Of a stretch of DNA of 47,596 nt, positions 5,850 through 47,596 are shown piece by piece. How positions within the stretch are numbered: position 1 is the stretch's first letter; every line of letters begins with the position of its first letter. A program made the translations under genes and the position numbers. Under the pieces are notes generated by a model. The model ran no database searches and was not told the origin of the DNA. It saw only the letters and a list, made by a program, of their open reading frames with translations. Source of the stretch: a virus; IMG/VR virus record IMGVR_UViG_3300050498_000023, positions 1 to 47,596 of that record; one strand, given 5' to 3'.

Positions 5850-6301
5850 TTCACCACTACTTCTTTTTTCAGAAGCTCAACTGTATTTTGGAATGCGCGC
5901 TCAAGGAGTTCAGGTGAGAGATGCAGAGGATACACTGAACCCGAACGACCCATTCCAGACATAACACAATCAGCGATGAAATCCAATACGTCGATCAGAT
6001 TCACATCGAATGGAACACCATCATTTTCCGTAAGATGATGGCGATTCAACTTACGATGTGCATCCCACCAAGTTGTCTGCTTAAATCCTGTGAGAAAATC
6101 ACGATGAAATCCATCGATATCCGTCAGTTTGTCTGGATCATGATTCGTCTTAGCATCTTGAATCTTTCCAATGAAAAATTCCAGTGCTTGATGGATATCA
6201 TCGATGTGTTGAACCGAACTTTTATACAAAGTCTCCTTTGAAACTTTTGTATAATCACAAGTTCGTGTATCAGCGGTTGAACTCTTTTCAATAGTAATCA
6301 A
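5846..6301 (-). CDS. 151-aa hypothetical protein (His/Asp-rich helical; family uncertain)
   Basis: ORF with a TTG start overlapping the TerL stop (TTGA). Motifs noted: NHDPDKL, WWDAHRKLNRHH, NLIDVLDFIADC. The resemblance to small phage HD-like helical proteins is only from memory. Confidence 0.45.
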   Translation of the reverse strand: MITIEKSSTADTRTCDYTKVSKETLYKSSVQHIDDIHQALEFFIGKIQDAKTNHDPDKLTDIDGFHRDFLTGFKQTTWWDAHRKLNRHHLTENDGVPFDVNLIDVLDFIADCVMSGMGRSGSVYPLHLSPELLERAFQNTVELLKKEVVVK

Positions 6302-23476: not shown

Positions 23477-23639
23477 CCTTTATCTAATTCCTCGAAGTGT
23501 TCCATGTGAGAAATGTGGAGTGAAGATAAGAACTTTAGAGTTACTAGCAAAAAAAGTCTGTCCTGTGTGTAAAGCAGAACAGAATGAGGAAAATTACGGG
23601 AAATACTTCGGCGTGATTAGAGGTGTTAAGAATGACTAA
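23469..23639 (+). CDS. 56-aa zinc-ribbon protein
   Basis: MADLYLIPRSVPCEKCG...CPVCK. The ATG at 23469 has gagg 8 nt upstream; the track start at 23406 is probably too long. Confidence 0.5.
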   Translation: MADLYLIPRSVPCEKCGVKIRTLELLAKKVCPVCKAEQNEENYGKYFGVIRGVKND

Positions 23640-24178
23640 TCACAAATACGTACCAGGAATGGGAGCAGTTGGTGCGCGCTTAATGATACTAGGCGAAGCA
23701 CCCGGACGTGAAGAAACTGCTTCTGGTAAACCCTTCGTCGGTGCTAGTGGTCGTGAACTAGACCGCATACTAATCGATGCAGGCATGAGACGTAGTGACT
23801 GCTGGATAAGTAACGTCTGCAAATACGAGGTTCCTCCAAATGAGTTTCGCAAGAAACTCCCTTTTCACATACGCGCGCGTAATGCCGGCATCGACATGGA
23901 CCAGCAGTTAGCAGAACTGCAAACAGAAATCAATGACATTAAACCTAACTGCATACTCGCTCTCGGTGGTACTGCTCTATGGGCACTGTCCGGAAAAACT
24001 AAAATTTCGATGCACAGAGGCTCTATCATGTGGGGTATGGGCCACAAGTTTGTTCCTACCTATCATCCCGCGCATCTTTTACATAGTGCTGCGGGTGGAG
24101 AAATCAAGGGTTATTGGAACCGACAAGTAATGATATTCGACTTCAAGCGTGCATACCAAGAGAGTCAATCACCTCAGC
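23632..24178 (+). other. UDG family 4/5-like domain of the polymerase
   Basis: LGEAPGREETASGKPFVGASGRELDRIL and the VPTYHPAHLL motifs. The N-terminal Cys pair of Fe-S UDGs is absent. Confidence 0.7.
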
Positions 24179-26169
24179 TTGAGTTGCCACAACGCGCACT
24201 ACAGATATGCAGGAACTCTGGAGAATTTTACGAGTTCCTAAATCGCTATTCAATGTGCGCCAAACTATCCGTGGATATCGAGGCGGGTGGTTCATGCCTG
24301 CCAATTTGTGTCGGACTGTCATTCGATAAAAGACATGGCATGACAATTCCATTGTGGAATCGTGGTGGTATTTCCACAATACCAGATAGTGACCTTGCTA
24401 CCATCTGGGTTATGCTAGCCAAGGTGCTGTGGGAGAAGAAAATTGTCGGACAAAATTTCAATTACGACAGGGACAAACTTCGTAGACTTGGTTTTGCCAT
24501 CCAACGTATCCACTCTGATACATTACTCAAGGCATTTGCTATTAACCCTGAACTCCCAAAAGGGCTTGCATTCCTTACATCTATCTATACCCGAGAACCC
24601 TACTACAAAGACGAAGGTATGTATGAGGGGGAACTTAGAGATTTATTCTTGGGGTGCGCGCGTGATAGTTGTGTCACGCTCGAAATAGAAGAAGCGATGG
24701 ATGAGGATATAGACGAGTTAGGAGTGCGGAAGTTCTACGAGAATTTCTTGATGGAATTGCCTGACTTCTATCTCGAAATCGAGAATAACGGATTCTGCGT
24801 GAATGAATCGAAGCGATATGAACTGCTCGACAAGTATATCGAGTGGGACAATCGACTGCGATACGAGATGTTTAAGCTCGCTGGTGGTAGTGATGTGAAT
24901 GTCAATTCACCACTCCAGGTCCACGAACTGCTGTTTGACGTATGGAAACTCCCGCATCGACATGGTACTGGTGAAGAAGAACTTACTGCACTTCTAAACC
25001 TGAAGCATGGCGTGAAGTTTCCTCAGCACAGGGAATGGATAGAGAAGTGTCTGGAACGCCGACGAGTAAGGAAAACTATATCTACCTACTTGATGGCAAT
25101 TCCTGATTTCGATGGTAAGATGAAAACTACCTGTTTCATGTGCCTCGAAACTGGGCGCACTTCTACCGGCCAACAAGACCCTCCCATCAGACCGCTAGTA
25201 GACATCGTAGGTAAAGGTAACAAGAAAGACATGAAGGTCATGGGTACAGCATTTCAGACCATGACTAAACACGGTGATATCGGCAGCGACATACGTTCGA
25301 TGTATGAGCCTGAACCGGGTTACATCTTCGTCCAACTAGACAGTCAGCAGGCTGAGGCGCGCGTAGTATTCAACCTCGCCACAGATGAGCAAGCGTTAAA
25401 GGACATAGACGAACATGATTACCACGCTCTTACTGCTAGTTGGTTTTTTGGCGGTATCGAATCTGATTACTCTAAGAAAGTACTCGGATATGAAAGCCCG
25501 ATTAGATTTGCTGGTAAGACTCTCCGCCACGCAGGACATCTCGACGCTGGAGCACGACGCGCAGCTACAGAACTCAATACACAGGCTAGAAAATACAAAA
25601 TCCCCATCACTATCCATGAGGGGCAGGCCGAACGTGCATTAAAGATATTCCACGCCAAACAGCCCAAGATTCGACAGGTGTTTCACCACGACGTACTCGA
25701 ATGTATCAAAGAAAATCGGCGCTTAATTGCGCCTTTACCTTGGGGGATCGATGCCGAACGAGGTGGTGTTCGTATATTCTATGAACGATGGGGTGACGAC
25801 CTATTTCGAGAGGGACTTGCCTATCTTCCACAACGAGCTGTCACTGATAATACCAAAGCGGCTGGTATTAGAATTAAGAGAGGATTCCGAGAGGCGAAAA
25901 TCATTCTTGAAGCACATGACGCACTTCTTTTTGCAGTGCGAATCGAGTATCTCGACGACTTTATCCCTCTAGCTAAGAAGGAGATGGAGCGTCCCATCAA
26001 TTTCTTGGCCTGTTCACTACCCCGAAGATTCCTCAAAATTCCTTGTGACGTGGAAGTAGGCGAGAACTATCGTGACTTGAAGAACTTCAAATTTCCTGAT
26101 AAGGTAGTAGAGCAACACAAGTTCGTGATGCCTAAAACAATAACTGAGCAATTTCTAGTACAGGAGTAG
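23632..26169 (+). CDS. Family A DNA polymerase with an N-terminal UDG-family-4-like domain and a 3'-5' exonuclease
   Basis: Exo I SVDIEAGG and Exo II GQNFNYDRDKL. Pol motif A is LDSQQAEARV, motif B region RFAGKTLRHAGH, and motif C EAHDALLF. The ATG at 23632 follows gaggtg. Confidence 0.85.
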   Translation: MTNHKYVPGMGAVGARLMILGEAPGREETASGKPFVGASGRELDRILIDAGMRRSDCWISNVCKYEVPPNEFRKKLPFHIRARNAGIDMDQQLAELQTEINDIKPNCILALGGTALWALSGKTKISMHRGSIMWGMGHKFVPTYHPAHLLHSAAGGEIKGYWNRQVMIFDFKRAYQESQSPQLELPQRALQICRNSGEFYEFLNRYSMCAKLSVDIEAGGSCLPICVGLSFDKRHGMTIPLWNRGGISTIPDSDLATIWVMLAKVLWEKKIVGQNFNYDRDKLRRLGFAIQRIHSDTLLKAFAINPELPKGLAFLTSIYTREPYYKDEGMYEGELRDLFLGCARDSCVTLEIEEAMDEDIDELGVRKFYENFLMELPDFYLEIENNGFCVNESKRYELLDKYIEWDNRLRYEMFKLAGGSDVNVNSPLQVHELLFDVWKLPHRHGTGEEELTALLNLKHGVKFPQHREWIEKCLERRRVRKTISTYLMAIPDFDGKMKTTCFMCLETGRTSTGQQDPPIRPLVDIVGKGNKKDMKVMGTAFQTMTKHGDIGSDIRSMYEPEPGYIFVQLDSQQAEARVVFNLATDEQALKDIDEHDYHALTASWFFGGIESDYSKKVLGYESPIRFAGKTLRHAGHLDAGARRAATELNTQARKYKIPITIHEGQAERALKIFHAKQPKIRQVFHHDVLECIKENRRLIAPLPWGIDAERGGVRIFYERWGDDLFREGLAYLPQRAVTDNTKAAGIRIKRGFREAKIILEAHDALLFAVRIEYLDDFIPLAKKEMERPINFLACSLPRRFLKIPCDVEVGENYRDLKNFKFPDKVVEQHKFVMPKTITEQFLVQE

Positions 26170-26173
26170 GAAA

Positions 26174-27451
26174 TTGACATGGCTGGACAAACTACTCTCC
26201 CAACACTCCGAGCTAGAGTCACCGACCAATTTCTGGTTATGGGGTGGAATGGCTGCAATATCAGCGGTGGTAAAGGACAATGTTTGGATAAATAGACAGA
26301 TTTACAACTTGTATCCGAATATCTACGTGATGTTCCATGCTGAGTCTGGACTGAAGAAAGGCCCACCTATAAGCATGGCGAAACAATTGGTGCGCGGTGT
26401 GAATAACACCCGTATCATCAGCGGGCGTAGCTCTATTCAAGGAATACTGAAGGAACTTGGTACTGCACAGACTCAACCGGGCGGTAAGGTGAATGCTAAG
26501 AGTACTGCGTTCATCTGTAGTAGTGAATTGACCAGCTCGCTAGTAGAGGACAAGGTAGCGACGGACATTCTGACCGACTTGTATGACAGACAATACAATA
26601 TAGGTGAATGGCGGTCGCTGCTAAAGATGGAACAGTTCAATCTAAAAGACCCAACTATTACTATGTTGACTGCGACTAATGACGCGCACTCAACTGACTT
26701 CTTCGGAAAGAAGGACATACATGGAGGATACTTTGCACGGACATTCATTATCTCGGAAAGCAAAAGACACAGAGCTAATTCACTTTCTGTCCCACTCACA
26801 AATCCCCCTAAGCTGGCAGAAGCAACTGAATACCTCAAAATCCTCGGCAAGTTACAGGGACCGTTCAAAGCGTTGGCGAGTAAAGAACAGACGGAGGAGT
26901 TCAAGTACCCGCACAAGGACTCAACTACAGGTGAAGTGAACTACTTCACATCAGCGGGGCTAATCTATGAGCAGTGGTACGATGATTTCATAGACCAGAT
27001 GCAGACTCAGGAATTGAGTGATGACACAGGCACATTGAATCGATTCGGTGATTCAATACTGAAGGTAGCGATGCTGCTATCTCTATCACGCAGTCCTGAG
27101 CTAGTAATAGATGACGAGTCAATGCGACTTGCTATCAACTATTCGGAACGGTTAATTGGTAACGTCCGATACATGACTCAGGGGAAGAAGGGACTGAGTG
27201 AAGCGAAAGGAATTAAGAAGCTGATAATAGATGAACTCTACTCAAGAGAATCGCATCAAATCTCCCGTCCTATGCTATTGAAGAAAATGTGGTCGCATTA
27301 CAGAGATGTAACCGAACTAGATGAAATCATGCTATCCTTCGACCAATCTGGCATGATTAAAATCGAGACTATCGGTAACAATATCATCTATGTAATGACA
27401 GACAGACAAGTTCAGGAATACAAACGGTATTACGCAGGGAAGAACAGATGA
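26174..27451 (+). CDS. DUF3987-like (YfjI-type putative helicase) protein with a degenerate P-loop
   Basis: TTG start 6 nt after AGGAG. LYPNIYVMFHAESGLKKGPPISMA aligns with the usual LYvllvGpsGsGKS region, but the Walker A Lys-Ser/Thr pair is lost. Confidence 0.45.
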   Translation: MTWLDKLLSQHSELESPTNFWLWGGMAAISAVVKDNVWINRQIYNLYPNIYVMFHAESGLKKGPPISMAKQLVRGVNNTRIISGRSSIQGILKELGTAQTQPGGKVNAKSTAFICSSELTSSLVEDKVATDILTDLYDRQYNIGEWRSLLKMEQFNLKDPTITMLTATNDAHSTDFFGKKDIHGGYFARTFIISESKRHRANSLSVPLTNPPKLAEATEYLKILGKLQGPFKALASKEQTEEFKYPHKDSTTGEVNYFTSAGLIYEQWYDDFIDQMQTQELSDDTGTLNRFGDSILKVAMLLSLSRSPELVIDDESMRLAINYSERLIGNVRYMTQGKKGLSEAKGIKKLIIDELYSRESHQISRPMLLKKMWSHYRDVTELDEIMLSFDQSGMIKIETIGNNIIYVMTDRQVQEYKRYYAGKNR

Positions 27452-27866: not shown

Positions 27867-28038
27867 AGTGAAACTCGTACCCAAATCTTCTGAGGCATCG
27901 ATTGTCTACATCATCGTGCGCGTAGATGATTCGATAAACCTCGATAATTCAGATAAACTTTTGGATTTCATGGAAGCTCAATTCCCAATGTATCGGGTGG
28001 AACATATCATCGCTGGATACAAGAAAACTGACCCTTAG
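27844..28038 (+). CDS. 64-aa hypothetical protein, last gene of the rightward arm
   Basis: The ATG at 27844 follows ggagga. The longer track ORF (from 27694) would overlap the previous gene. Confidence 0.45.
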   Translation: MPLSPVFEVKLVPKSSEASIVYIIVRVDDSINLDNSDKLLDFMEAQFPMYRVEHIIAGYKKTDP

Positions 28039-31000
28039 AATGGAGAACCACCCTTAAATTGCAGGTCAGATCCACGAGGAATGAATACACTTTCCTCTTG
28101 ACCTCTCTTGTATGTCTGTGAACCCATCCCTACAGCAGTTGCAGGAATAACCACTGGAAGTAGGGCTGGGTTTTCTTTAGCTAGTTCTATCACATCTCCT
28201 ATAATCATGGGAACAAACATCTGCACCATACGGTCACCCACATATGTAGGTCTTTGTTTGGACGCATATGCTAGGTCATAAGCGAAACTCGCTACAGGAT
28301 TCAGTTTGTTTGAGATGAATCTTTGTGCGATTTCACCTCTAGTTGGTGCAGGGAAATCTGCTCCTGTTTCATACCGTTTTCCTGATGTCTTAGTTCTGCC
28401 CGTGAGTAAGCGATAACCCGCAACGATGTATTGCTGGAACCCACCAGCAGGGTCTATGCGCGTATCACCAATTCTAATCTTACCAAAGTCTGCACTATCT
28501 GGATCTAATGATACGGCTGCTCCTGCCATACTTGCCAATCCCGCCATACCTGCCCACGCGCTCGTAGTAGCCAGAGCAGATTTCAGATACTGCTTTCTGA
28601 CAAGCGGAGGTGCCATGATGTACGTAGCAGGATTCAACATCTGGAATCGTGATGCCATAAGACGTGGTGCAAAGAAGATATCCGCCATTACCTTCGCACT
28701 CTGCTCAAATCGTCCCAAATCACCACGTCCAGTTGCTGTATTTATGTAATCTCCAATCGCCTTAGTTAGTGGTAGATCCTTCAGTGGATGTAGTCCCATG
28801 TCCTTAGCAGATTCAAGTATAGCTTTGAACGAATCTGCGCGTAGTGAATTCAGGTATGCTGTGTATGCGCGGTTAGTCCTACGCACACCGGGAACATACT
28901 TCTCAATTGCCCCACCAATTGTATTCTCCTCTCGTCCAGTTATCTTATCATTCACATCAGTAAGTCTTATCCCTGCTTCTTCAGCTTGTGACTTCCCGAA
29001 CTTTCCCGTCATAGGGTCAAAAGGTCTAGTGAATTCAGGACGCGCTTTAATCTCAGCCATTATCTGGTTATATGCACCCTCACTTCCCAACGATTGCAAC
29101 ATAGGTTTCCATGAAGTCCACCACTGTTTGGTGTGTATCATGGGAAGTCCCTGTCTAAATGGTGCAGACAAGTCCCACGTTGCCATTAGCCCGCGTGGTG
29201 CATGATACAATTGTCTTGCTATACTTTCTTTTACTGGTTTCTTTCCTCCTCCGGGAAGAACTCCTTTTCCATTAGGCTGATTACCTCCAGGAATTCCTGG
29301 CGATCCCGCTCGGGCCAAGAGAGGGCTTTCTGCTTGTCTAGAGAGAATATCGACTTTAGACTCTCCGCGCCCCCGTGCTTGAGTGTATTCCCGTACGAGG
29401 TTCGGTATCTCTGCAACATAATTTCCTGTTGGTCCGGTGATAGCTTTGAGTACTTTAGCAACATATGCCTCCGTATCTGGAAAGCGCGTGTCTAATTGAG
29501 AAAACGCCCAAGTAAATCCACCTCCCTCATCTCGAACTAGATTATGATTAAACTCATGTTTGACTATATGCACAAATCTACGTGCAGCTTCGGCAGGTGT
29601 TAAATCTCGCACTCCACCCGTAAAACCAGAGCGGAATGAGTCCATCGGATTTACTAAGATAGCAAATTTCTGAGCGTTAGTCGGTGAACTTGGATCAGAT
29701 ATATTAATTCCGCCTTGACCTTCATCTGCAATTCTATAACCAAATTTTCCTGTTGTTCCTTTAAGTTCAGCAGGAGTAAAGTAAGTAGCTAAATCGTCCA
29801 ACAGCTCTTTCATAATCCCACCCATCTTTTTAAGGGTAGGACTATTGACAACTCTAGCTAATTCTTCAGGTGTATATTTTGAACCTGAATCTAGAACTAC
29901 ATGACGATTACTAGACTCGGGTCGTAAACTGTTGTAAACTTGTTGAATTTCTCCTAAATATTTAGCTCTAGCAGGAGCAACAATATTATCCTTAACCCAT
30001 TGCTGAAGTTCTGTACTAACACTCTGATTAATTCCCTCACGATTAGCTGGAAATGGATAGTCAGTATGACCTTCTGGTACCTTAGTATTAATGTCAAATA
30101 CAACTCTACTGGGAATATGAGGAATTCCATAACGTGATACGTTCATTCTAGTAGAATGATAAAATGTTCCATTATTTAAGTAAATAAGAGTAATTTGTGA
30201 ACGCTCCTTATCGTCTAGATTAAAGCGAACCGCAGTATCATTACTTGGAGTTACTATAGTATCAACATGAGCAGGTGCGGCTGCTGATTCAAATCTATTG
30301 AAATTAGCACGACGATCATATGCTGAAAGTCCTTGTTCTCCCTTATTAATAAATTTATTAGCCTCCGATCTAGGATCTGTTGTATCTTCTGTCAACCAAT
30401 TCTCATAAGATTCAATGTTCTTCACTCCAGTACTATTTTCACTAACTACTTGCAGCAATTGTTTTGCATTATCAAAGTATTTATCCCGTCCAAAGAACAC
30501 TTCCACACGCAATCCAGTAGGCTTGTCATAGTGTACATTATAAGGATCATCCAATACTTCACGACTCAGGGGTACACCTACTTCCTGATTCACAAACTGT
30601 TCTGGAGTACCCTCAAATGTATACCTAACTTTATCTCCACCTTCCATTACAATGGATTCAACTCGCATGTGCTCACCACCTAAAAATGGAGCAGCTTTTG
30701 CGAATCCAAATCCACCAGCAGCACCCTGTATGTGCCTCTTACCACTCTTACCTACGTCAGAAAATTCATTATACAGTTGACTTTCATTCATTCCTCGACC
30801 AAAGTCTTGGAATACAATAGATTTTTGAGCTACTTTCGTTACAGGATTAAGAGAAGCATTCGAGAATATAACTCTAACTGGATTCTGAATACCAGCAATC
30901 TTCATCTCATCCATAATATTCTGCATTAATTCTTGAATCAATACAGAAGGTCTATCCCTAGTATATAGACTCTGACCAAGTTGTCTAATAACTTGGGGAT

Positions 31001-32714
31001 CTGCACCACCCATTGCAAGATTAGGTCTACCAGTCTGAGGATTAACAATTACAGGCCCACCACCCCCATATCCACCTTGCCTGACCTGCATCCTGCTAAC
31101 TGGTTCTGAACCAAATGCAGGACCAGGTGTTGGATAAGTTCTCGTCAATCCATGAGCTTCGTACTCAGATACTCCTCTTACTTTCTGAGGCCATGATCCT
31201 TCTGCACCTGTTGCACTACCCGGAGGTACTCTAGTTACAGGAGCCGTAACGTAATCCTCAAATTCCTCCTGTGTAGGCTCACGTTTTAGCATTCGCCTCA
31301 GATTATCTCGTTGTTCTTCAAGAGGATCAGCCTGCATTCTACTAACTAGAGATTCCTCATCACCACCTATCTGTTCCATACGCGCACGGGCGCGTAAATC
31401 ATCTATACCAGTAGGTGGTAAGGGAGATTCCTGTAAACCCGCTTCAATATTGAATTGATCCGCTGATTGTTGACTTACAGCTCTTTGTCCTTCAGGAGTG
31501 AGTTTATCCCATCCTGTTTGAAATGGAGTTTGTTCCTGAATAGGAGGCCGTCCTGCATCTATGTTTTCATTAATCTGCTGTATACGCTGTTGCCTTGCTC
31601 TTTCCTGTAATTCTGCCTCTGCTTCTGCCCTTGCTCTAGGGTCAGCCATGTTACTAACTAGAGGTTCATCTTCACCTACAGCTACTCGCTTAAATGTAAC
31701 AGTATTAGGATTTCTATCAACTAATGTATATCCACCTTCCTCCATATTAGCGATAAAGGTGTTATTTACCCTAGCAGTCGGAACTTCAATAGTTTCTCCG
31801 GGTATTTCTCGGCGTGAGACTGGCTCCACTGAAGGCTGAATTGGAGTTGGTTCGACCTGAGTTGGAGTAGTTTCAGCATTCGTGTATAGAGGCGCAAGAT
31901 CACCACGTACCATCTGGACGTAGCCTTCAGGACTACGCAGATTTGGTACTGACACGTATCCCTGATTACGATAGTACTCTACAATCGAAGCATCAGGAGT
32001 CTTAATCGTAACTACGCGCGGTAAACCCTCTCCTGCTACTGGTTGGGAAGCAGCAACAGTAGAAATACTTAGAGATGGACGTGCAGCAGGGGGAGGCGGA
32101 GGAGCAGATACGTCAATATCAACATCAGTCTTAGGTAATGGCACATCAGGAATTTGATTCAGTTTTCTGCCGTGATAGGCACCAATCCCACCACCTGTTA
32201 CCAAACCCATCAACCCGCCTGCACCAACATTCTGTGCATATTCCTCTAGTGGCGCATCGAAACTACCAGTCTGCGCCCAATGTTGAAATGGAGTACCGGC
32301 ACCGCTTACGACTGCACCTTCAGCAGCTCCGGACAGTGCTGTTTTACCCGCATATTTAGCTATTGCGCCGAGTCCTTTACCCGCGAATTTTGCAGGTCCA
32401 AGAATAGGAGGAACAGCACCTAATGCTGTCTCTACTCCAAATTCAGCGGGATTAAATTCCCTTCCACCATACCAATTACCCAGCACATTACCTAATGCAG
32501 AGCCACCTGCACCACCCGCCATGCCACCGGGTATGCCACCAAGAATACCACCTGCTACACCACCAACTACGGCAGGTACAGTGCGTAGACCCTGTTCTAT
32601 CCACCAGTCTAGTCCTGATGGTTCAGGTTTACTTGTTTCAAATTCCGAAAAATCATACTTCGGAGTAATTGTATCGAAATCTGAAAAATCGTACTTCTTT
32701 TGGGGGCCGGCCAT
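28035..32714 (-). CDS. 1559-aa multidomain internal-virion-type protein: glycine-zipper N-terminus, Hsp90/HtpG-like GHKL ATPase domain, HExxH motif, hydrophobic C-terminal region
   Basis: Last gene of the structural operon, with TAATG coupling. Motifs are detailed in the domain features. N-terminus: [31 protein letters not shown]. Confidence 0.85.
   Translation of the reverse strand: [1559 protein letters not shown]
29544..29558 (-). other. HExxH motif (HEFNH, aa 1053-1057): possible zincin metallopeptidase site
   Basis: Context [26 protein letters not shown], a hydrophobic helix followed by HExxH. No third ligand was assigned. Confidence 0.35.
30420..30992 (-). other. Hsp90/HtpG-type GHKL (Bergerat-fold) ATPase N-domain, aa ~575-765
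   Basis: [22 protein letters not shown] (N-box E595/N599/D602). [29 protein letters not shown] (G1 box plus the AKSGT-like segment). [12 protein letters not shown] (G2 box). All three run parallel to the remembered E. coli HtpG segments [20 protein letters not shown] / [27 protein letters not shown] / IGQFGVGFYSAF. Confidence 0.7.
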
Positions 32715-34333
32715 TATTTTACATACCCCTTAGCAATGGCAAGTTGAACATTTTTATCCGTAACTACCTGTCCCTGAGCCTTTAGAAATTCCTCCGCGCG
32801 CTGCCTTAATCCAATTTTCTTAAGATCATCCAATTCTCTCTGAATAGCTGGCCTAATCTGATTAGGTGTCTTAGGATTGGCTAGAAATCCTTCTAATTCA
32901 GTTATTCTAGCTTTTTCTCTTGCTCCTTTATTTGCACCAGCAGCGGCAGCCCTAGCTCTTATGTCTGCTCTAGTTTTTTCTTCTTCTGATGTTCCGGGAA
33001 TTTTAGTAGGTCCAATTCCCTTTGATGAGGTAGTCGGAGGTGCAGGTGGAGGTGCAGTTTGTTCTTGTCTAGGAAGTGAAGGAGGAACATAATTTGGATC
33101 AATAGACTGTCTTACTCTATCCCATGCATCCACTTGAGCCTGAGTTACACCCGCACCCAATCCCCATAAACCTGTAGGACCAGCTTTAGGTCTATCTGTC
33201 ATTTGATATGTGCCATCATCATTCTTAATTATGTGCTCTCTGGCTTCAGGATCTATTGCATAGGCATTTCCTAAAATCTTCTGCATATCTCCTGATGCAG
33301 CCGTAGGTCTAGGTGGTGTTCCAGGTCTAGTTGGAGTACCTTGCGGCAGTCCCTGTACGGGAGAGAAGCTTCCATCCTCATTACGCTGGTAAGTTGTACC
33401 ATTTATTACAACTAAGTCCCTACCAGATGCTACTGCACCTGCCTGTGCAGTTTGTACTGCTGCTCTACCCTGTGCTTCACTTCGTTTTACACCCCACTCA
33501 CCGATAATGTCAAGTTCATCTGCTCTATCTATCCCACCAGATGGACCTAAATCTACTCGTTCTTGAGTACTAGGATTTATTGCTACAAATCTCGAACCAG
33601 CCTTCTCTACTGTCCATCCACTATTCTTGGCAGCATACGCACGCGCGCGTACTGAATTCACTTCCGCCGCCGCTCTATTCTTTTCTTCAGTTATTCGATT
33701 CTTCTCGTCAGCTATTCGGCTCAACTCAGCCTGTTTATTCGCCGCGGTTGTAGCATTAACAACATTTCCTGCTAATGTCCGTTCATTGATGTTTGCCGTA
33801 TTCTCGAATTGTGCAGCTTGGCTAAATGGCCCCGCTTTTGCCGTAAAATCAGCCATATCACGGTAATGAGGTGCATTTAACACTTTTTCCTGCACTTCAT
33901 AACCACCTGGAATTCCTCTACTCTTGTTACCAAGGAATGCACCGGCAGCCACGATCCTTCTACCCAATGACGGTTCTTCACGTTCAGGATATTGGTCTAA
34001 AAGTCCTCGAAATCTGTCTCTATCTACAGTAGATGGTGTATAGAATTGGTTAATAAGATCCGCCATTTCTTTTGGATCATATGCTGCATTCTGCCCCATC
34101 GGTTTAATCTGCGGAGGTGGACCCATCTGCACGTTACGTCCATAACTCGTAGGATCAAATGATGGCTTACCCGGATTTATTGCCTGAAATTCATCTGGTA
34201 TTGGCATAGGTTGAAATGGGTCATCATACGTCGGTGCATAACTACCCATGCCAAAGTCACCACCAGTAATATCTGGGGTAGACTGGAATATCTGAGGTTG
34301 GCGTAGTTTATCAATCCCGTATCTAGACGCCAT
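32714..34333 (-). CDS. 539-aa internal-virion-type protein (Pro/Gly/Ala/Gln-rich)
   Basis: The ATG at 34333 forms a TAATG overlap with the upstream stop (the track start at 34357 is rejected). It contains a coiled Ala/Asn/Arg region and a Pro-rich linker. Confidence 0.6.
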   Translation of the reverse strand: MASRYGIDKLRQPQIFQSTPDITGGDFGMGSYAPTYDDPFQPMPIPDEFQAINPGKPSFDPTSYGRNVQMGPPPQIKPMGQNAAYDPKEMADLINQFYTPSTVDRDRFRGLLDQYPEREEPSLGRRIVAAGAFLGNKSRGIPGGYEVQEKVLNAPHYRDMADFTAKAGPFSQAAQFENTANINERTLAGNVVNATTAANKQAELSRIADEKNRITEEKNRAAAEVNSVRARAYAAKNSGWTVEKAGSRFVAINPSTQERVDLGPSGGIDRADELDIIGEWGVKRSEAQGRAAVQTAQAGAVASGRDLVVINGTTYQRNEDGSFSPVQGLPQGTPTRPGTPPRPTAASGDMQKILGNAYAIDPEAREHIIKNDDGTYQMTDRPKAGPTGLWGLGAGVTQAQVDAWDRVRQSIDPNYVPPSLPRQEQTAPPPAPPTTSSKGIGPTKIPGTSEEEKTRADIRARAAAAGANKGAREKARITELEGFLANPKTPNQIRPAIQRELDDLKKIGLRQRAEEFLKAQGQVVTDKNVQLAIAKGYVK

Positions 34334-35433
34334 TAGCCGCCTCCGCCTTCTTCCCAAACATTAGATGGCCCTCGTGATGGCTGTTGTGGGCGTCTACGAT
34401 TACTCAGGAATGCATTGGCTACACCAGTACCAGTGTTAACCCAATCCATTACGTCATTACCACGCTGCATACCACGTTCCCATGCACCCGGTAATTGTTG
34501 TCCTTCCGCGCGCCGTCCCATCATGTTCAGGCCATATGTACCACCTTGGCCTACACCTTGTAACAACTGATTACCGAATGTCTCGGCCATACCCGGTGAA
34601 GTGCCGTACAGCTGAGTCATTCCACTTAATGCTCTCAATCTATCGGTGTTATTAGCCGCTGCTGATGCTGCTCCACGATTTGCACCACTTTCAGCAGCCG
34701 CATTTGCAGCCGCTTGGGCACGCGCATAAGCATCAGCATTGTACTGTTGACCCTGAAAGTCTAGTCCTGTATTGAATTTGCTGAGATCAACGTCTGCACT
34801 GAGCCGTTGACCCTCAATATTACCCATTCCAGTCAGACCAAACTGCCTACCTCTATTCCTTGCTTCTGCCAGTCCAGCTTCTACATTCTGTGTAGCATCA
34901 GCCGCAGCCTGTCCTTGTTCTCTTGCCATCTTTACCTGCGCGGCTATTGCATTAGGTGCGTAGCCACCTTGTAATGACCTTTGTCTACCTACTTCACGTT
35001 CAGCGTTAGCGTATGCCGCGCGTATAGGACTGACTCCCCTCGCACGCATATTCGCTATGTCATTAGCAGAGTATCCACCTGTGCTGGCGAATTCCTGCAT
35101 TCCTCCGTATGAAGCAAATGGATCACTGTATCCTGCTCTACCCGGAGATACAGTAAATGCGTCGAAATTACCAACAGCACCACCGCCTCCGCCACCGCCT
35201 CCACCACCTTCGCCAGCTTGTCCACCACCTGATGCAATGGACCGATACTGGTTCATAATATCGGTGTAATCACCGTAATTCGCTTCAGAACCACGACCAT
35301 AGTTCTGCGCGAATGCATTAACCATTGGTCCTTGCTGCTTTTCATATCGATTTTGCTGATAATTAGCAGCATTCTGTAACTGGCCCCGAGGATCATTTCC
35401 AGATTCGCCTGGTTTCTTGTTATTTGAACCCAT
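34333..35433 (-). CDS. 366-aa Gly/Ala/Gln/Asn-rich internal-virion-type protein
   Basis: Contains GEGGGGGGGGGGAVG and repetitive Ala/Gln/Asn helices. It lies upstream of the two larger proteins. Confidence 0.6.
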   Translation of the reverse strand: MGSNNKKPGESGNDPRGQLQNAANYQQNRYEKQQGPMVNAFAQNYGRGSEANYGDYTDIMNQYRSIASGGGQAGEGGGGGGGGGGAVGNFDAFTVSPGRAGYSDPFASYGGMQEFASTGGYSANDIANMRARGVSPIRAAYANAEREVGRQRSLQGGYAPNAIAAQVKMAREQGQAAADATQNVEAGLAEARNRGRQFGLTGMGNIEGQRLSADVDLSKFNTGLDFQGQQYNADAYARAQAAANAAAESGANRGAASAAANNTDRLRALSGMTQLYGTSPGMAETFGNQLLQGVGQGGTYGLNMMGRRAEGQQLPGAWERGMQRGNDVMDWVNTGTGVANAFLSNRRRPQQPSRGPSNVWEEGGGG

Positions 35434-35439
35434 AACTCC

Positions 35440-35823
35440 TCACAAGTCGAAAATGAGTGACTGTCCTTGGGGCAATCTGAACCCGTTTTTCATTAATCTT
35501 TTCGTGTATTTTGGATTCTGGCTCCAAACATACATCTGTTCGTAATCCGACTTCTTACACACGAAGGTATTCGCGTCTAACATCTGGTATAATGCCCGCG
35601 CTCGAACTCTAGGATCTCTACTCATGTTCGTGACTAATACGCACTCAGCTATGTCACGTATTCCGCCCGCTGTAATGATTCCTTCCTCGTCTTCCACAAC
35701 GAATGCACAGACGTATTTCATGAAATCTGGCATAGTGAATTCACCCTTGAAGTGCAACGAGTGAATTCTCTCCACTTCACTCACATCAGCGGGAGTAAGT
35801 GCGCGTATTTTATGGGAGTTCAT
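35440..35823 (-). CDS. GNAT-like acetyltransferase-fold protein (tentative)
   Basis: MNSHKIRALTPADVSEVERIH...FVVEDEEGIITAGG...LYQMLDANTFVCKKSDYEQMYVWSQNPKYTKRLMKNGFR follows the GNAT strand-helix layout. The Q/RxxGxG/A motif is not canonical. I prefer the ATG at 35823. Confidence 0.4.
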   Translation of the reverse strand: MNSHKIRALTPADVSEVERIHSLHFKGEFTMPDFMKYVCAFVVEDEEGIITAGGIRDIAECVLVTNMSRDPRVRARALYQMLDANTFVCKKSDYEQMYVWSQNPKYTKRLMKNGFRLPQGQSLIFDL

Positions 35824-36433
35824 AGAATCCACTAATTGTAATGACTTGACCAGACGCCAATGCAGCCGGTGCCGCACCACTATAGAGATTCGCACTATTA
35901 TGTATCAGCAATACAACACCGGCTCCGAATGCTTGCGCGGTCATACCCTGATAAGTAGGTGAACCATTCCAAATTGCAGGCATTGCTATCGTTCCAGTAA
36001 ATGCTGTAGGTAAGCTGAATGTATAGAATCCACTTCCTGCCGCAGTCGTAGTTCCAGGATTGAATGCAATCGTGCAGTATACAGTTTTACCGATAGTCAT
36101 GAATCGGCCTGTTAATGTTCCATTATTGAGCGCAAAGCCTCCACCTGATGCAGTTATTACTGGTGTAAAAGGCTGCCACACCCCCTGAGATTGCCAGTTA
36201 GTATTGAAATTAGTTGCATCAATCTTTGTTAATACTTGTCCAGCAGTACCACCAACTGGAACACCCGGACCTGTCGGACCTTGTATACCTTGTGGTCCCT
36301 GTGAACCTGTAGCTCCTGTATCTCCTTTATCTCCTTTAGGGCCAGTAGGCCCAGCAGGACCAACTGGTCCCTCACTGAGTGGATTCCAGATAGGAACCCA
36401 ATTAGTAGTTGCAGGATCAGGAATATCAACCAT
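35810..36433 (-). CDS. Collagen-like repeat tail fibre protein (short)
   Basis: GPVGPAGPTGPKGDKGDTGATGSQGPQGIQGPTGPG G-X-Y repeats followed by a beta-rich C-terminal domain. Confidence 0.7.
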   Translation of the reverse strand: MVDIPDPATTNWVPIWNPLSEGPVGPAGPTGPKGDKGDTGATGSQGPQGIQGPTGPGVPVGGTAGQVLTKIDATNFNTNWQSQGVWQPFTPVITASGGGFALNNGTLTGRFMTIGKTVYCTIAFNPGTTTAAGSGFYTFSLPTAFTGTIAMPAIWNGSPTYQGMTAQAFGAGVVLLIHNSANLYSGAAPAALASGQVITISGFYELP

Positions 36434-36787: not shown

Positions 36788-38422
36788 CTAATTCTTCTGA
36801 CAGAAATACACGTCAATAAATGGTGGCAGATTAGATGCCGCCGCTGACACGCCCGTAACAGGAGGCGCTTCACTACTTATTGGACCTGAACCTGCACCCG
36901 ATCCGCTGAAATTATGTGAGTGATCTCCTCTTGAATCAGTGTCCGAGTCAATTGTTCCACTAAAGTTGTGAGTGTGACTCGCCGCATTAGTCTGAAAACT
37001 TCCACCAGCATCAGCCGTGTTCGCTGCGCCTGTAGATGCTGTTGTGCCAGCAAATGGTGCGCTCAAATGATGATTATGATTCCCAGCGTTGTTAGTAGAT
37101 CCACTGACATTCACGCTGACATTGACGTTACCACCATGATTATGCGAACCTGCTGCAAAAGTGCCCGGACCATGTGAGTGTGTTGCTGCTCCACCAGTTC
37201 CACCCGGAGCACCACTACGTATAAAGAGTCCATCCCAATTCACCCTTGTCCATCCAACTGGACAAGGTGACATACTAATAACAATCAATCCACTCGGAAA
37301 TGATTCTAATGACTGCCACGTTGAATCACCACGTAAGAATGTGGATGCATTCGGCGTTCCGCTACCTAATCTACTTGGATTAACTAGTCCAGTCGTGATA
37401 TTCGATCCATTTAGATTCGTTACATCTGCGCCATTGCCTAGCAGGAATGGTGCAACAAATTGTCCAACTCTTGTGTATGCAAATTGGGCCTGATTAGTTC
37501 CAAAGCCATCAGTCCATGCCTCAACATAAAGATTACCATCCTGATAATTAATCATTCTCCAGATACGTTTATTGACTGGAGCAGCAGTATCATGAAATTC
37601 TAATGCACCATAACTTCCAGAAATTCTAGTAAAAGCAGCAAGAGTCTGTGGTACAAACATGTTATCGATGTTCTTCAGTGCTACGTTAGAAGTCAATCGA
37701 TTATCTGGTAGTATTCCAGTCGTATCAGTTAGTGGTATTGTCGCGACTACACTTGGTTCACCCGCAGTTGATCTTACATAGCCAGTTCCGAGCGCACCTA
37801 ATGGACGCGCATTCGGTAGACTCGCGTGTGGTGAAACTAACCAATATGTAGCATCTGCTACAGCTCCACCTGCTGGTCCGGGTGGTCCTTGTGGTCCTAT
37901 TGGTCCTACTATACCTTGTGGACCTGTAGGGCCAGTAGGTCCGGGTGGTCCCGGTGGACCTGTAACTGTTGCAATACCTACACCGGGCCATGTTACAGGA
38001 GGATCATTAGTCGGTTTTACACACAGATAAGCAATATTATCTGGACCAATGATTACATCTCCGTCACTGTAGAGAGGACCGGCTGCGAAATTCCCTAAAT
38101 ACTCTAAATCTAAATCTATCGTTCTCTTGTTGGCAACTGTATCATCGAATTTCAGTCCAAATCTTGCAAGGAACTGACGTGAATTCGGTAATATCGATGC
38201 TTCATTATCTTCAGTTAGGTATGAGGCCGCATCACTCGCGCCGCCACCTCCCGGTCCACCACCTATTATGGTTGTACTCGAAACAGCAGCCTGAGCACCT
38301 GATAATCGTTCAATAATTTCCTGAACGACTTGGTACAGAGAACCATCAACGTCCCTAGATTGTGCTAGAGTACTTTTTAAGTCCGCAAATTGCGGCGGCT
38401 TAGTTGAACGCTTCTGCACCAT
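36788..38422 (-). CDS. Collagen-like repeat tail fibre with tail-collar-like region and an HxH-repeat tip
   Basis: [31 protein letters not shown]. The [18 protein letters not shown] segment is collar-like. Five HxH motifs are present (HSH, HNH, HNHH, HTH, HSH). Confidence 0.75.
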
Positions 38423-40113: not shown

Positions 40114-41716
40114 CTAAAATCTCCGTAGGATTTCCAGAAATTAAATCAGGACCAATAGCTCCGAGTACTAATCTGTCAGTTTCGGCTAGTGTGATGCTGT
40201 TGATGTTCGCGTCGTATATCCACTTAGCCCATCTAATTTCCTTCGCATTCATTCCGTTCTTGTAGTCCGCGTGTAACAGCACCTTCCTGAACGGCGGAGG
40301 CAATGTAATCCAGAGTTTCTTATTGATTGAATCATTTACAATCTGTATTAGATGGAATTCATTTCGGTCCAATCCTCTCCAAAAATCTTCAATCTTCCAG
40401 GACATTTCAGGCTGTGCATATACGCCGTTGAATAGCATCAGACCTGACCAGTCCACAATGATTAGAAAGTCGATGTTCACGCCGCCCGTGTCTAACACCG
40501 TTGCTATTCCATGAACAGGTGAGCCTATACCTTGGTCCAGTAGTTCTTCCTGCCATGTTACTGGTTCATCATAGTTATCTGAGTATGCGTATGTTCTAGT
40601 TTTCTTGAATATATACATGACATCCCTAAATTCTTGGACGCATGTTAGTGGATGACCATCTAGTGGAACAACTATGATTCCTTCTACCTTGTTTATTGCT
40701 TCTGGTTCACCTGCGACTGACAATCTAGCAATTGATCTGTTGTCTGTGATTCCTGCTGGTAGTCCTGTCAATGTTTCAGTCGTACCAAATTCTCCGACTA
40801 TCACGAGCCGAGAATGATACGTGTTCAGATATACACCAGCGGGAATCTCAGCAAAGTTATCAGCTAGGTGCGATGCGTCACTTAGCAGGTCAGCATCAAA
40901 GAAGTTGATAGTTTTCGTAGTATCGATGTTATTATCAATATTTCCTCCTGGAATGAAGAAGTATTGATATCCCTTCTGATCACCATTGTATTCCGGTATC
41001 ATTTTCGTAGATACCAGATGTCGCTTCTTGACCCAAGCGTTAGGTGATACAGGAATATTCGATACGACTATATCATGCGTACCAGTGAATGTTACTTCAG
41101 CTTTAACATCTGGTCCTATTGATGTGAAATAACCAGTGTCCGTCTCATATACCACTCCGATGATGTGAAATCCAGCATCAGATTTAATTCCCGTCGTGAT
41201 TGCTCCCATTGCAGCAGTCATCGGCGGGCCTACAGGTGGAGTCCCGGCCGCTTTACGCGCCGCAGTTCCATCACCTTTGTAGACGTAAATGAATTCGTTT
41301 TGAATTCCTAGCTGATACTTTTCACCATTCTCATTCGTGTATGTCTTGAATGGACTGATATACGCGCGCCCGTTAATCGCGACGAACCCAAAATCCTCCA
41401 TCGCTGCGATGGTTAGAATCGGCCCAACTATCGTCCTAGGTGAACCTTTAATGTGATAGATGTTCCCTCCTTCAGTCAATACCAGGAGAGTTCCACCCTG
41501 CTGTGTAATGTAGTTATAGATTCTTAGAGGCTTCAGAATGACACTTGGATTGACATAGGAGGTTATTCCCTCCCTAGTCTCAAGTCCAGACTGAAAATAC
41601 TGAACATTATCAGCCTGAATGAAGTGGTCAGATGGAGCAGATTCGGCGTCACCTCTACTCCACCAGCCAGTAAAGTCTTCAATTACGAGTGGTTCGTGGT
41701 CCCTAGTAGTCGGCAT
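40103..41716 (-). CDS. 537-aa tail structural protein (nozzle / tubular-B-like by position)
   Basis: Large beta-rich ORF after a 240-aa adaptor-like gene, in a T7-like order. No motif evidence. Confidence 0.4.
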   Translation of the reverse strand: MPTTRDHEPLVIEDFTGWWSRGDAESAPSDHFIQADNVQYFQSGLETREGITSYVNPSVILKPLRIYNYITQQGGTLLVLTEGGNIYHIKGSPRTIVGPILTIAAMEDFGFVAINGRAYISPFKTYTNENGEKYQLGIQNEFIYVYKGDGTAARKAAGTPPVGPPMTAAMGAITTGIKSDAGFHIIGVVYETDTGYFTSIGPDVKAEVTFTGTHDIVVSNIPVSPNAWVKKRHLVSTKMIPEYNGDQKGYQYFFIPGGNIDNNIDTTKTINFFDADLLSDASHLADNFAEIPAGVYLNTYHSRLVIVGEFGTTETLTGLPAGITDNRSIARLSVAGEPEAINKVEGIIVVPLDGHPLTCVQEFRDVMYIFKKTRTYAYSDNYDEPVTWQEELLDQGIGSPVHGIATVLDTGGVNIDFLIIVDWSGLMLFNGVYAQPEMSWKIEDFWRGLDRNEFHLIQIVNDSINKKLWITLPPPFRKVLLHADYKNGMNAKEIRWAKWIYDANINSITLAETDRLVLGAIGPDLISGNPTEILDVG

Positions 41717-42438
41717 TAGTATCCACCACGAGCCTTAAATGCAGCTCTGAAGGGTCTATGACGAGTCATGATACTCTGGCGACCCTTGTTACTAATCGCT
41801 ATGGCCCTGTCTATTGCTTTCTCTGCTTGAGCCTCTAATACGGCTGCGCGCGTCTCATTTTCTCCAATGAAGAAAGCACATAGAGCCGCAGTCTTGTATG
41901 CGAGGTAAGTGCGTGAGTTAATCGCGTGAATTATATCATTCTCATTTACTACGTAGTTGACTCCCTGAATCACATACTTCAATTCAATTTCTAGTCTGAG
42001 ATTCGCTCCACCCGGATTGAACCTGATTACTAGTAGATCCCAAGTCCAGAATAGGAGAGAGTTAGTGGTAGGAAATCTCTGGTTAAATTCTCTGTGTGGT
42101 AATGGGTGGAATGCTTTATTACTTCCTTCAGGTCGTTCACCAATCTCCTGAATCTCAACCAAATTGTCCGGATATTTCGGATATCCTGGAGTTGTATCTT
42201 CTTGTCGAACAATAGCATCTACTCCAACTGGCATAATAATCTGATAGGGCGTGTAGTTAGTTGATGTGAAATTAGATACGGGAGCGTTAGCCTCCGCCAT
42301 CATGTCAGAGAATTCCTCAATTGCCATGTTCAGGTAAGGAACCATGACATTATATTTGTAATCAGTTTTATTGGGATCATTTAATAGATTCGCAACACGA
42401 TCCATTATCTGACCCGCTGATACGGCTGTGGTGCTCAT
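41716..42438 (-). CDS. 240-aa head-tail adaptor / tubular-A-like protein (by position)
   Basis: ATGA and TAATG coupling; positional call only. Confidence 0.35.
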   Translation of the reverse strand: MSTTAVSAGQIMDRVANLLNDPNKTDYKYNVMVPYLNMAIEEFSDMMAEANAPVSNFTSTNYTPYQIIMPVGVDAIVRQEDTTPGYPKYPDNLVEIQEIGERPEGSNKAFHPLPHREFNQRFPTTNSLLFWTWDLLVIRFNPGGANLRLEIELKYVIQGVNYVVNENDIIHAINSRTYLAYKTAALCAFFIGENETRAAVLEAQAEKAIDRAIAISNKGRQSIMTRHRPFRAAFKARGGY

Positions 42439-46742: not shown

Positions 46743-47596
46743 CTAGTCTTTCATCAACACATCCAATGTGCTCATCCCGCGCGGGATATCACTCGCCTTC
46801 TTGTATTTTCCACTAGAGGGGGCCTGTGGACGGCCGGGCGTAATTGGACCCTTTTTCTCGGGTCTTTCTTCTTCTTCACGATCTTCTGAATCTGCGCGTC
46901 TACCTAAGCCTCTAAGCGCGTCGTTTCGTGCCTTTTTTATCACACTAGGCAAAAGTGTTTTCGCTTTGCTTAGATACGCACTCTTAATTCTATCGGTGGA
47001 TTCTTTGTCAAATCCACTCTGAAATGCTTTCTCCCACAATCTGTCGAGCAGTCCACGAAATCTCACGTCTTTTGCCATGAGATTTTCGAGTGTTTCATGC
47101 GCCTCTTTCACCGCATGATTCTTCACGTAATCTGTCATCGTGCCACGCGGATCAATGTTCCCACTAATCGTCGCTGTAAGCACGTTATCAGCTTTAGTCT
47201 GCAAACTTTCCCGCGTAGACTCAAACTGACCATAAATTCTCTGCTGTTCTTGCTGTCTGTATTGCTGCTCTCTACTCTGTTCACGCGGGTCACTCTGTCT
47301 TGACAACGGAACAGGTGGAGCAAAATTCTGTGAACCAAATACAAACTGGTTCAGGACATTCGCCGCTGCTTGTAACGGCGCACCTTGTTCACCAAGTGCG
47401 CGACTTTCCTTAACCATCGTAATGATGGTGTCTTTTATCACGTTTCCGAGTACGTGATAGTATGCCTGTTGATCTACTCGTCGCAGCGTTGGAAGATAGT
47501 TATCGGCAATCCTGTAGAATGCTTCCTGATCCTCACTTTTCGCTGCCATTAGCACTGATGTGATGTCACCACTCATCACTTCAGCTTCTACGTTGT
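46743..47596 (-). CDS. Scaffolding-like protein, C-terminal part (continues upstream into 557..1 across the closure)
   Basis: The track ORF 46743..47579 has no stop upstream up to the window end. Bases 47470-47596 duplicate 1-127, where the same frame continues to the ATG at 557. Confidence 0.7.
   Translation of the reverse strand, partial: NVEAEVMSGDITSVLMAAKSEDQEAFYRIADNYLPTLRRVDQQAYYHVLGNVIKDTIITMVKESRALGEQGAPLQAAANVLNQFVFGSQNFAPPVPLSRQSDPREQSREQQYRQQEQQRIYGQFESTRESLQTKADNVLTATISGNIDPRGTMTDYVKNHAVKEAHETLENLMAKDVRFRGLLDRLWEKAFQSGFDKESTDRIKSAYLSKAKTLLPSVIKKARNDALRGLGRRADSEDREEEERPEKKGPITPGRPQAPSSGKYKKASDIPRGMSTLDVLMKD
47470..47596. repeat. Terminal direct repeat, copy 2
   Basis: Identical to 1-127. 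Confidence 0.95.

Follow-up and report, generated by a model that had tools for sequence, protein, structure and literature searches.

We analysed a virus genome from IMG/VR (record IMGVR_UViG_3300050498_000023, positions 1 to 47,596; this whole stretch of 47,596 nucleotides is called the window here) and found that a giant protein encoded at the end of its late operon joins a GHKL-type ATPase, a second alpha/beta domain and a predicted zincin metallopeptidase into one compact unit. The gene, an open reading frame (ORF) with an ATG start that encodes 1559 amino acids (aa), occupies 28035..32714 on the minus strand. A preliminary description had given the same ORF, with no strand, and all the peptides it quoted (aa 51-75, 582-603, 636-662 and 664-675, and HEFNH at 1053-1057) are present in the product. 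The ATPase domain is a genuine Bergerat (GHKL) fold of the Hsp90 type, as judged from sequence profiles and structural models, and catalysis is predicted.

The ATPase, the second domain and the zincin

The ATPase domain was delimited at aa ~573-772 (30399..30998, minus strand) by profiles, an AlphaFold2 (AF2) model, Foldseek and motif conservation. It carries motif I, or N box (E595-x3-N599-x2-D602, nucleotides [nt] 30909-30932), motif II (D637-x-G-x-G641, nt 30792-30806), the ATP lid residues G658-K659, motif III (G667-G-F-G670-x-x-K673, nt 30696-30716) and motif IV (T733-G734, nt 30513-30518), all on the minus strand. The window sequence by itself matched Pfam HATPase_c_3 at an E value of 0.0045, PHROG 2979 "RIIA" at 1.2e-6 and HtpG in the PDB at 0.029, its Pfam score being 17.5 bits against a gathering threshold of 25. 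With the profile of an 18-sequence alignment of the module (A2), the Hsp90 proteins TRAP1, HtpG, Grp94 and Hsp82 were found in the PDB at E values of 8e-11 to 1e-7, followed by TopoVI-B. Pfam HATPase_c and HATPase_c_3 were matched by 17 of the 18 A2 members, as was the NCBIfam model "HSP90 family protein", and many relatives pass the Pfam thresholds.

The AF2 model of aa 557-1127 reached a predicted local distance difference test score (pLDDT) of 86.2 and a predicted template modelling score (pTM) of 0.77. Searching the PDB with this model, Foldseek placed TRAP1 first (5.7e-13), then Hsp90-beta, HtpG and Grp94, with alignments running through the N and M domains at 11-15% identity to the Hsp90 structures; ParE, TopoVI-B, MutL, MORC3, GyrB and SMCHD1 came further down. 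There were 119 matches at E<=1e-3, and among the matches listed all were GHKL enzymes. The DxGxG and HExxH motifs were both present in 153 of 162 proteins, at a distance of 331-455 aa (mean, 395). It is this fixed spacing, together with the pTM of the model, that indicates that the ATPase, the second domain and the zincin form a single unit.

Conservation was counted in 150 cluster representatives of <=50% identity, chosen for the presence of the DxGxG and HExxH motifs. Motif I was kept almost throughout (E595 in 147, N599 in 147 and D602 in 148), as were the lid (G658 and K659, 149 each), motif III (G667 and G670 in all 150, K673 in 147) and motif IV (T733 in 144, G734 in 149). D637, G639 and G641 were found in 150/150, a count that is not independent evidence, since the representatives had been selected on DxGxG. 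The near-invariance of the catalytic residues points to purifying selection on catalysis and not to a relic. The catalytic Glu, the Mg-binding Asn and the Asp and Gly boxes that had been read from the window sequence are thus conserved across the family, and both profile and structure searches recover the Bergerat fold.

The second, transducer- or middle-like alpha/beta domain (aa ~780-930; 29925..30377, minus strand) was recognised from AF2 secondary structure, Foldseek, hhalign and conservation. Its near-invariant residues are N847, G849, Y886-P887 and R892-E893 (the latter at nt 30036-30041); R892, which lies in a loop, is invariant in 150/150 representatives. We take this invariant "NRE" loop to recall the "SRE" of the Hsp90 middle domain, with its catalytic Arg contacting the gamma-phosphate, as a lead only. 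When the second-domain profile alone was compared with the PDB, no Hsp90 was matched and just a summed-repeat artefact (8h2i) was returned, so that the equivalence with the Hsp90 "SRE" Arg stays at the level of a lead.

The nearest relatives of the ATPase are the GHKL domains of phage RIIA proteins and not cellular HtpG, as both sequence and model comparisons indicate. In BFVD, Foldseek gave one match to the whole module (A0A516L4L2; TM score, 0.60), followed by dozens of RIIA proteins (E 1e-12 to 1e-8), and a tblastn search with distant family members leads straight to RIIA genes. By hhalign, A2 was aligned with the RIIA of Ruegeria phage V17 over 341 columns that cover the GHKL and second domains (probability 97.6%, E 4.5e-12); in this alignment the "SRE" of the Ruegeria phage protein falls on R892-E893 of the family's NRE motif, and the match ends at RIIA residue 386 of 862. 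The match of A2 to T4 RIIA (probability 96.6%) takes in the GHKL domain only. A hidden Markov model (HMM) of the family scored the Ruegeria phage and T4 RIIA proteins at E values of 1e-24 and 3e-18, respectively.

What is shared with RIIA is thus the same Hsp90-like GHKL ATPase, with an N-terminal "LxxxLY" helix and motifs I-IV, and in some RIIAs the similarity runs on through the second domain. The full-length RIIA architecture was not found, the match to PHROG 2979 being confined to profile positions 27-124 of 846. RIIA proteins, represented by T4 rIIA and by the RIIA-like proteins of N4-like, T4-like and jumbo phages, measure 620-1050 aa, lack an HExxH motif, diverge in their C-terminal part, which is variable, and mostly have rIIB as a neighbouring gene, whereas the ATPase of the window is fused to a zincin and embedded in a scaffold protein of the late operon. 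RIIA proteins are not known to be virion proteins.

Among solved structures, the Hsp90 proteins (HtpG, TRAP1, Grp94 and Hsp82) are the best match both by profile and by fold, and they share ExxxNxxD, DxGxG and the K-S-G lid with the giant protein. The latter nevertheless fails membership of Hsp90 proper on its sequence: it lacks the Hsp90 C-terminal dimerisation domain, the second domain being followed by the zincin instead, and the NCBIfam "HSP90 family protein" model, whose cutoff is 455 bits, gave it 20.1 and covered no more than profile positions 18-132 of 604. With the HtpG and Hsp90 models of NCBIfam, too, the match is confined to the N-terminal ~115-130 residues. The preliminary description was therefore right about an N domain of Hsp90 type, and its comparison with HtpG is corrected in that RIIA is nearer; the fold by itself does not make the protein a chaperone.

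The zincin-like metallopeptidase domain (aa ~938-1127; 29334..29903, minus strand) was recognised from its HExxH motif, weak matches to WLM/Wss1 and the AF2 model. The motif, H1053-E-F-N-H1057 (nt 29544-29558, minus strand), is followed at position +6 after the second His by a putative third ligand, E1063 (nt 29526-29528, minus strand). HExxH is present in 150/150 aligned representatives, which had been picked for the motif; the column at +6 was not used for selection, and it holds H in 113, E in 36 (including E1063 of the window) and V in 1 of the 150. An HExxH-x5-H spacing is the ligand spacing of WLM/Wss1. With the WLM/Wss1-SprT zincins the domain shares HExxH and a third ligand at +6, whereas this ligand in the window protein would be Glu and not His. 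Pfam WLM was matched weakly by 4 of the 18 A2 members (best E 0.0029), and Wss1p aligned across the whole domain, motif included, at a sub-threshold E value of 0.2. In the AF2 model, HExxH lies on a helix (residues 484-500 of the model; pLDDT 76-94) after a small beta-sheet, in agreement with the helix context proposed earlier, and the order of elements is compatible with a zincin. We regard the assignment as a zincin peptidase as well supported by motif and conservation, with its clade not settled and its activity predicted.

A scaffold with exchangeable cargo

An exhaustive search with aa 539-1105 retrieved 491 cluster representatives at E<=1e-3 and 126 at E<=1e-30 (clusters at 50% identity, from uncultured or metagenomic phages). 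Among the 150 matches listed, almost all were proteins of 1300-2500 aa. A degenerate DNA pattern run against IMG/VR gave 19 matches, all of them true family members. No isolate phage with the module was found among 50,697 GenBank phage records by tblastn with three family members, which gave just RIIA GHKL matches and one match to the C-terminal domain; a DNA-level search of the GenBank phages likewise gave no match.

The window protein ends in a mostly helical domain of ~380 aa (aa 1165-1545; 28080..29222, minus strand). An HMM of this domain matched 126 of 162 relatives, always at the extreme C-terminus, and a profile search retrieved 247 further proteins. In the best 120 of these 247, which lack GHKL, the median length was 728 aa, and the domain started near residue 325 and ended ~11 residues from the C-terminus; none of these 120 had the full ATPase-zincin module, with the zincin end visible in one that is probably truncated N-terminally (P0180). 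Two such short forms were inspected on contigs of 44-48 kb. In both, the gene is the last of the structural arm, its start overlaps the preceding stop, and it converges on a DUF3987 primase and a UDG-fused PolA, which is the same locus as that of the window gene. At this locus in close syntenic sister phages, we observed a zincin without GHKL (P0004) or neither domain (P0005). Comparison with the sister phages and the short forms thus indicates a core gene made up of the N- and C-terminal parts, with the ATPase-zincin block as an insertion present in some phages and absent from others. Further inserts occur in larger relatives, namely, ResIII plus Helicase_C_4 (a SNF2/Sno-type helicase) in P0146, LPD38 ("large polyvalent protein associated domain") in P0115, DUF3293 in P0132 and a second GHKL module with a helix-turn-helix domain in P0138.

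The N-terminal conserved region (aa 30-190; 32145..32627, minus strand) was defined from a family alignment (A1) and hydropathy, and its HMM matches 20 of 162 relatives. It contains a Gly-zipper hydrophobic segment (aa 42-75, nt 32490-32591), which at aa 42-67 provides the sole clear hydrophobic stretch of the giant protein, and a 15-residue motif at nt 32250-32294. By hydropathy, the N-terminal Gly-zipper of the preliminary description is therefore present, and its C-terminal hydrophobic segments are barely supported, being reduced to one marginal stretch at aa 1385-1403. Neither the N-terminal nor the C-terminal scaffold domain has a relative in Pfam, PHROG or PDB or by Foldseek, the C-terminal domain having been compared with the PDB as a sequence profile. 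A BID translocation-signal domain (of a Bartonella type IV secretion effector, 4yk2) was considered for aa ~1240-1310, where the C-terminal profile matched it at the borderline, and set aside, its E value of 0.017 being too weak to use, although the match is a curious one in a protein for which delivery into cells is proposed. A second AF2 model, of aa 928-1559, had a mean pLDDT of 60.5, falling below 50 in the last third of the C-terminal domain.

Two linkers connect the module to the scaffold. The first (aa 191-556; 31047..32144, minus strand) is Pro/Gln-rich, variable and poorly conserved in alignment A1. It carries two copies of a "(Q/G)GY-x8-10-G-x5-(R/K)" motif, at aa 250-271 (31902-31967) and aa 325-343 (31686-31742), and similar GY motifs, e.g., KLGFDYEGMDAQGRIIIKK and EQGYKFGGKVREDGAFQMVK, stand directly before the C-terminal domain in the ~720-aa homologues. 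The second linker (aa 1128-1164; 29223..29333, minus strand) is rich in Gly, Pro and Lys, with pLDDT <50. In some relatives (P0034, P0040, P0082, P0098 and P0110), a further conserved stretch of ~150 aa, reading "...RPIREDQE..YSAERS.R....VK...GGHVPQRGEL...", separates the zincin from the C-terminal domain; it is not in the window protein.

We also compared the GGFGxAKAAP pattern with 185,579 species-representative genomes and found it on two contigs only, both in metagenome-assembled genomes (MAGs) of ammonia-oxidising archaea: a Nitrososphaerales MAG (L007, DATBXD010000037.1, 1-3830, minus strand) and a Nitrosotalea MAG (L008, JBGPGB010000093.1). Both encode true family members (module E values 1e-188 and 1e-200) that are 30-38% identical to the window protein, a level of identity that permits no statement on the host of the window. 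The contigs may point to tailed viruses of Nitrososphaeria, or else to mis-binning.

Genome, late operon and possible packaged counterparts

The first 127 bases of the window are repeated exactly at its end (47470-47596), indicating a complete, circularly assembled genome of 47,469 bp (46% GC) in which the late operon crosses the window ends. On the plus strand, a replication arm encodes the helicase, exonuclease, Sak4, PolA and primase. The other arm, the long late arm on the minus strand, wraps round the window ends, begins upstream of the large terminase gene TerL (6298-7971) and closes with three genes for proteins of 366, 547 and 1559 aa. The giant gene is the last of the minus-strand late operon and convergent with the primase/PolA arm, and this synteny is kept in relatives. 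Its ATG shares one base with the stop codon of the 547-aa gene (TAATG), an overlap from which coupled translation of the two can be deduced.

The 547-aa protein (32714..34357, minus strand) is Pro/Ala-rich and corresponds to a syntenic gene for 400-552 aa in relatives; the listed TTG start is probably too far upstream, and a Met at codon 9 would give 539 aa. The 366-aa protein (34333..35433, minus strand) is rich in Gly, Ala and Gln, has a poly-Gly run and is likewise syntenic in relatives, where it measures 370-405 aa. The preliminary description had placed the giant gene last in the operon after two large Gly-rich proteins. The position is as described, and the label suits the 366-aa protein (17.8% Gly), whereas the 547-aa protein is not markedly Gly-rich (9.3%). 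Earlier in the late arm, two collagen-like ORFs with Gly-X-Y stretches (35810-36433 and 36788-38422) match many PHROG tail-fibre families. In the operon of the sister phage P0005, the equivalent fibre gene, with Collagen, lies upstream and ends in Peptidase_S74, an intramolecular chaperone domain. A 240-aa ORF (41716-42438, minus strand) weakly resembles the SU10 adaptor (Pfam, E 2.4e-4, below cutoff) and is, on sequence, the only hint of a podovirus-type neck in the virion. Most neighbouring ORFs, in the window as at distant loci, gave no match when scanned against PHROG and Pfam, and there were zero matches to portal, capsid or nozzle, so that the portal, capsid and tail genes lack positive identification. 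RIIB was absent from the PHROG matches of the 21 window proteins scanned (20 neighbouring ORFs and the giant protein). A search for tRNA genes found none, and no terminator was found 3' of the giant gene.

The replication arm of this phage group includes a family-A DNA polymerase with an N-terminal UDG-like domain (window 23623-26169, plus strand), adjoined by the gene of a DUF3987-type primase/helicase of 420-430 aa (window 26174-27451, plus strand); L001, L002 and L028-L032 are alike in this respect. Cold-shock-domain genes lie near the polymerase/primase pair in the group, and the relative L032 additionally has an Acb2/Tad1-hairpin anti-defence gene.

The gene order recalls podovirus ejection proteins, as the preliminary description had noticed. 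The structural genes of P22 close with three ejection genes, 7-20-16, and in the window, as in P22 (gp7-gp20-gp16) and T7 (gp14-gp15-gp16), three consecutive genes of increasing size end the structural block and encode Gly/Ala/Pro-rich sequences of low complexity. The analogy is positional only: no PDB or Foldseek match to any solved ejection protein was obtained, and the window protein differs in having no detected lytic transglycosylase domain. The only GenBank phage record with the C-terminal domain is MW202497.1 (L004, 9451-14199), in which a 1582-aa hypothetical protein follows genes for portal, capsid and a "phage stabilization protein" (P22 gp10-like). In this protein the domain lies mid-protein (~aa 850-1160) and is thus not always C-terminal. 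A "tape measure protein" had also been considered for the giant gene and was rejected in view of its place as last gene of the operon and after the fibre genes, the hint of a podovirus-type adaptor and the ~720-aa orthologues.

A second comparison is with the polyvalent proteins, which are packaged and injected with the DNA and in which a zincin metallopeptidase is the commonest hub domain, proposed to autoprocess the injected proteins (Iyer et al. 2017, PMC5512222). Like the N4 virion RNA polymerase with its MPTase domain or P1 DdrB, the window protein is a very large late-operon product with unrelated enzymatic domains around a zincin, its central cargo is swappable, and relatives carry LPD38 and a SNF2-type helicase. 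The GHKL ATPase and the zincin also supply the two or more (>=2) disparate enzymatic domains in one polypeptide by which polyvalent proteins are recognised. The window protein differs in having no LPD domain, and Pfam has no entry for its N- and C-terminal scaffold domains. The terms GHKL, HSP90, HATPase and histidine kinase have zero occurrences in the full text of PMC5512222. The possibility, raised earlier, that the architecture was already catalogued is therefore half borne out, in that the polyvalent class has been described and GHKL or Hsp90 is not named in its founding paper. The GHKL fold, the RIIA affinity, the zincin and the polyvalent-protein concept are each already known; for a fixed unit of RIIA-type ATPase and zincin, or for its placement in a late-operon scaffold, we found no description in the 50,697 GenBank phage records, PHROGs or the full-text literature.

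Possible roles and their meaning

The reading that we prefer, while giving it somewhat less than even weight, is that the giant protein is a polyvalent-type virion protein that would be ejected and would carry an ATP-controlled ATPase-zincin cargo with RIIA-like counter-defence. The scaffold would consist of the N-terminal Gly-zipper region and the C-terminal helical domain of ~380 aa, seen in most related phages as the ~720-aa product of the last late gene, and would probably be packaged and expelled with the DNA in the manner of the three terminal ejection genes of P22-like podoviruses. Inserted in mid-scaffold, the cargo would comprise three domains, the RIIA/Hsp90-type GHKL ATPase, the transducer-like domain and the WLM/Wss1-like zincin. 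Since the virion and the periplasm are without ATP, the ATPase could act only in the cytoplasm. After ejection, the module may meet ATP at the inner membrane or in the cytoplasm, and ATP may then drive the lid closure and dimerisation that are typical of GHKL enzymes. These movements might control the adjacent zincin, which would cut the polyprotein free, cleave a host protein or do both, and the outcome would be a counter-defence or membrane protection like that of RIIA, delivered at time zero. A more specific version, which we consider unlikely in its full detail, makes the GHKL domain sense that the protein has reached the cytoplasm: on first meeting ATP there, it would switch on the fused zincin, which would free the module and/or destroy a component of host abortive-infection or membrane defence before any phage gene is expressed.

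Several results weigh against an ejected, ATP-controlled effector. The case for packaging and ejection comes from genes, namely, gene position, the analogy with P22 and the context of MW202497.1, and hhalign of the C-terminal domain against T7 gp15/gp16 and P22 gp20/gp16 gave probabilities of just 0.2-0.4%. Neither a peptidoglycan hydrolase domain in the giant protein nor, in a Pfam scan of the window protein, an LPD domain was found. Strict coupling of the two enzymes is not obligatory, with a zincin lacking GHKL in P0149 as well as in P0004. The sequence links of the zincin to WLM/Wss1 are all sub-threshold (E 0.003 to 0.2), and Foldseek with the model of aa 928-1559 gave a best E value of 1.4, with BepA and a BoNT-like zincin at 3.7-7.9 only. 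Finally, the biochemical function of RIIA is, to our knowledge, not known, so that "RIIA-like" predicts little.

The need of GHKL enzymes for ATP can also be turned towards the producing cell, given that virions are without ATP and the infected cell is rich in it. The module might there act as an assembly factor, a built-in chaperone or maturation protease that folds, inserts or trims the scaffold or its neighbours and is removed or inert in the virion. The location of the gene in the late operon and the occurrence of the zincin without GHKL would suit such a role, as would the precedents of P1 DdrB, which is processed before packaging, and of the N4 virion RNA polymerase, whose zincin region is needed for encapsidation (PMC5512222). 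However, most related phages assemble the same scaffold without the module, which is hence not needed for assembly, the RIIA relatives of the ATPase are conflict-related and not morphogenetic, and some relatives combine the module with SNF2 and LPD38 domains of the effector type; we thus see a small but appreciable chance for an assembly factor. The same common ~720-aa form lacking the module speaks against a part in DNA delivery, which evidently works without it. Such a part, with a GHKL dimer clamped on the incoming DNA or channel and a zincin acting on a DNA-bound protein, would accord with the podovirus-like gene position and with the matches of Foldseek and NCBIfam to the DNA-clamp GHKLs TopoVI-B, MutL, MORC3 and GyrB. 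WLM/Wss1 proteases, here a weak match, are DNA-dependent. Yet Hsp90 and RIIA outscore the DNA-clamp families, and Pfam scans detected no DNA-binding domain, so we rate an ATP-driven delivery clamp as rather improbable.

It is also conceivable, at a slim chance in our estimate, that the protein is no virion component at all and acts late in the producing cell as a membrane-anchored analogue of RIIA, in lysis timing, membrane integrity or superinfection exclusion. The T4 annotation has RIIA as membrane-associated and not part of the virion, the N-terminal Gly-zipper could serve as an anchor, and in relatives the gene is preceded, at a distance of a few genes within its operon, by endolysin-like genes. 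Against this stand the translational coupling of the gene to upstream genes syntenic with structural ones, the portal, capsid and gp10-like genes that surround the scaffold homologue in GenBank, and a large size and domain swapping that are typical of packaged polyvalent proteins. That the domains are catalytically dead relics serving as structural bulk could be argued from the sub-threshold Pfam score of the single window sequence, but every catalytic residue is kept in 144-150 of the 150 representatives and many relatives score above the Pfam thresholds, which makes relics highly improbable.

RIIA ranks among the oldest genes of molecular genetics, and its ATPase core is found here in a new setting across at least ~490 clusters, rigidly paired with a conserved zinc protease as the optional cargo of a late-operon protein that is probably injected. 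The finding extends the repertoire of polyvalent proteins by a GHKL ATPase, defines a large and entirely unannotated scaffold family that seems to serve as a delivery vehicle, and offers rules by which hundreds of giant "hypothetical proteins" in viromes can be annotated. For RIIA-type ATPases, proteolysis is suggested as a partner activity and the first moments of infection as the time of action, both of which can be tested. If the module is indeed an ATP-gated effector, RIIA-type ATPases as a class would regulate proteolysis at the membrane or take part in it as partners, and the 70-year-old question of rII function would gain a biochemical handle.

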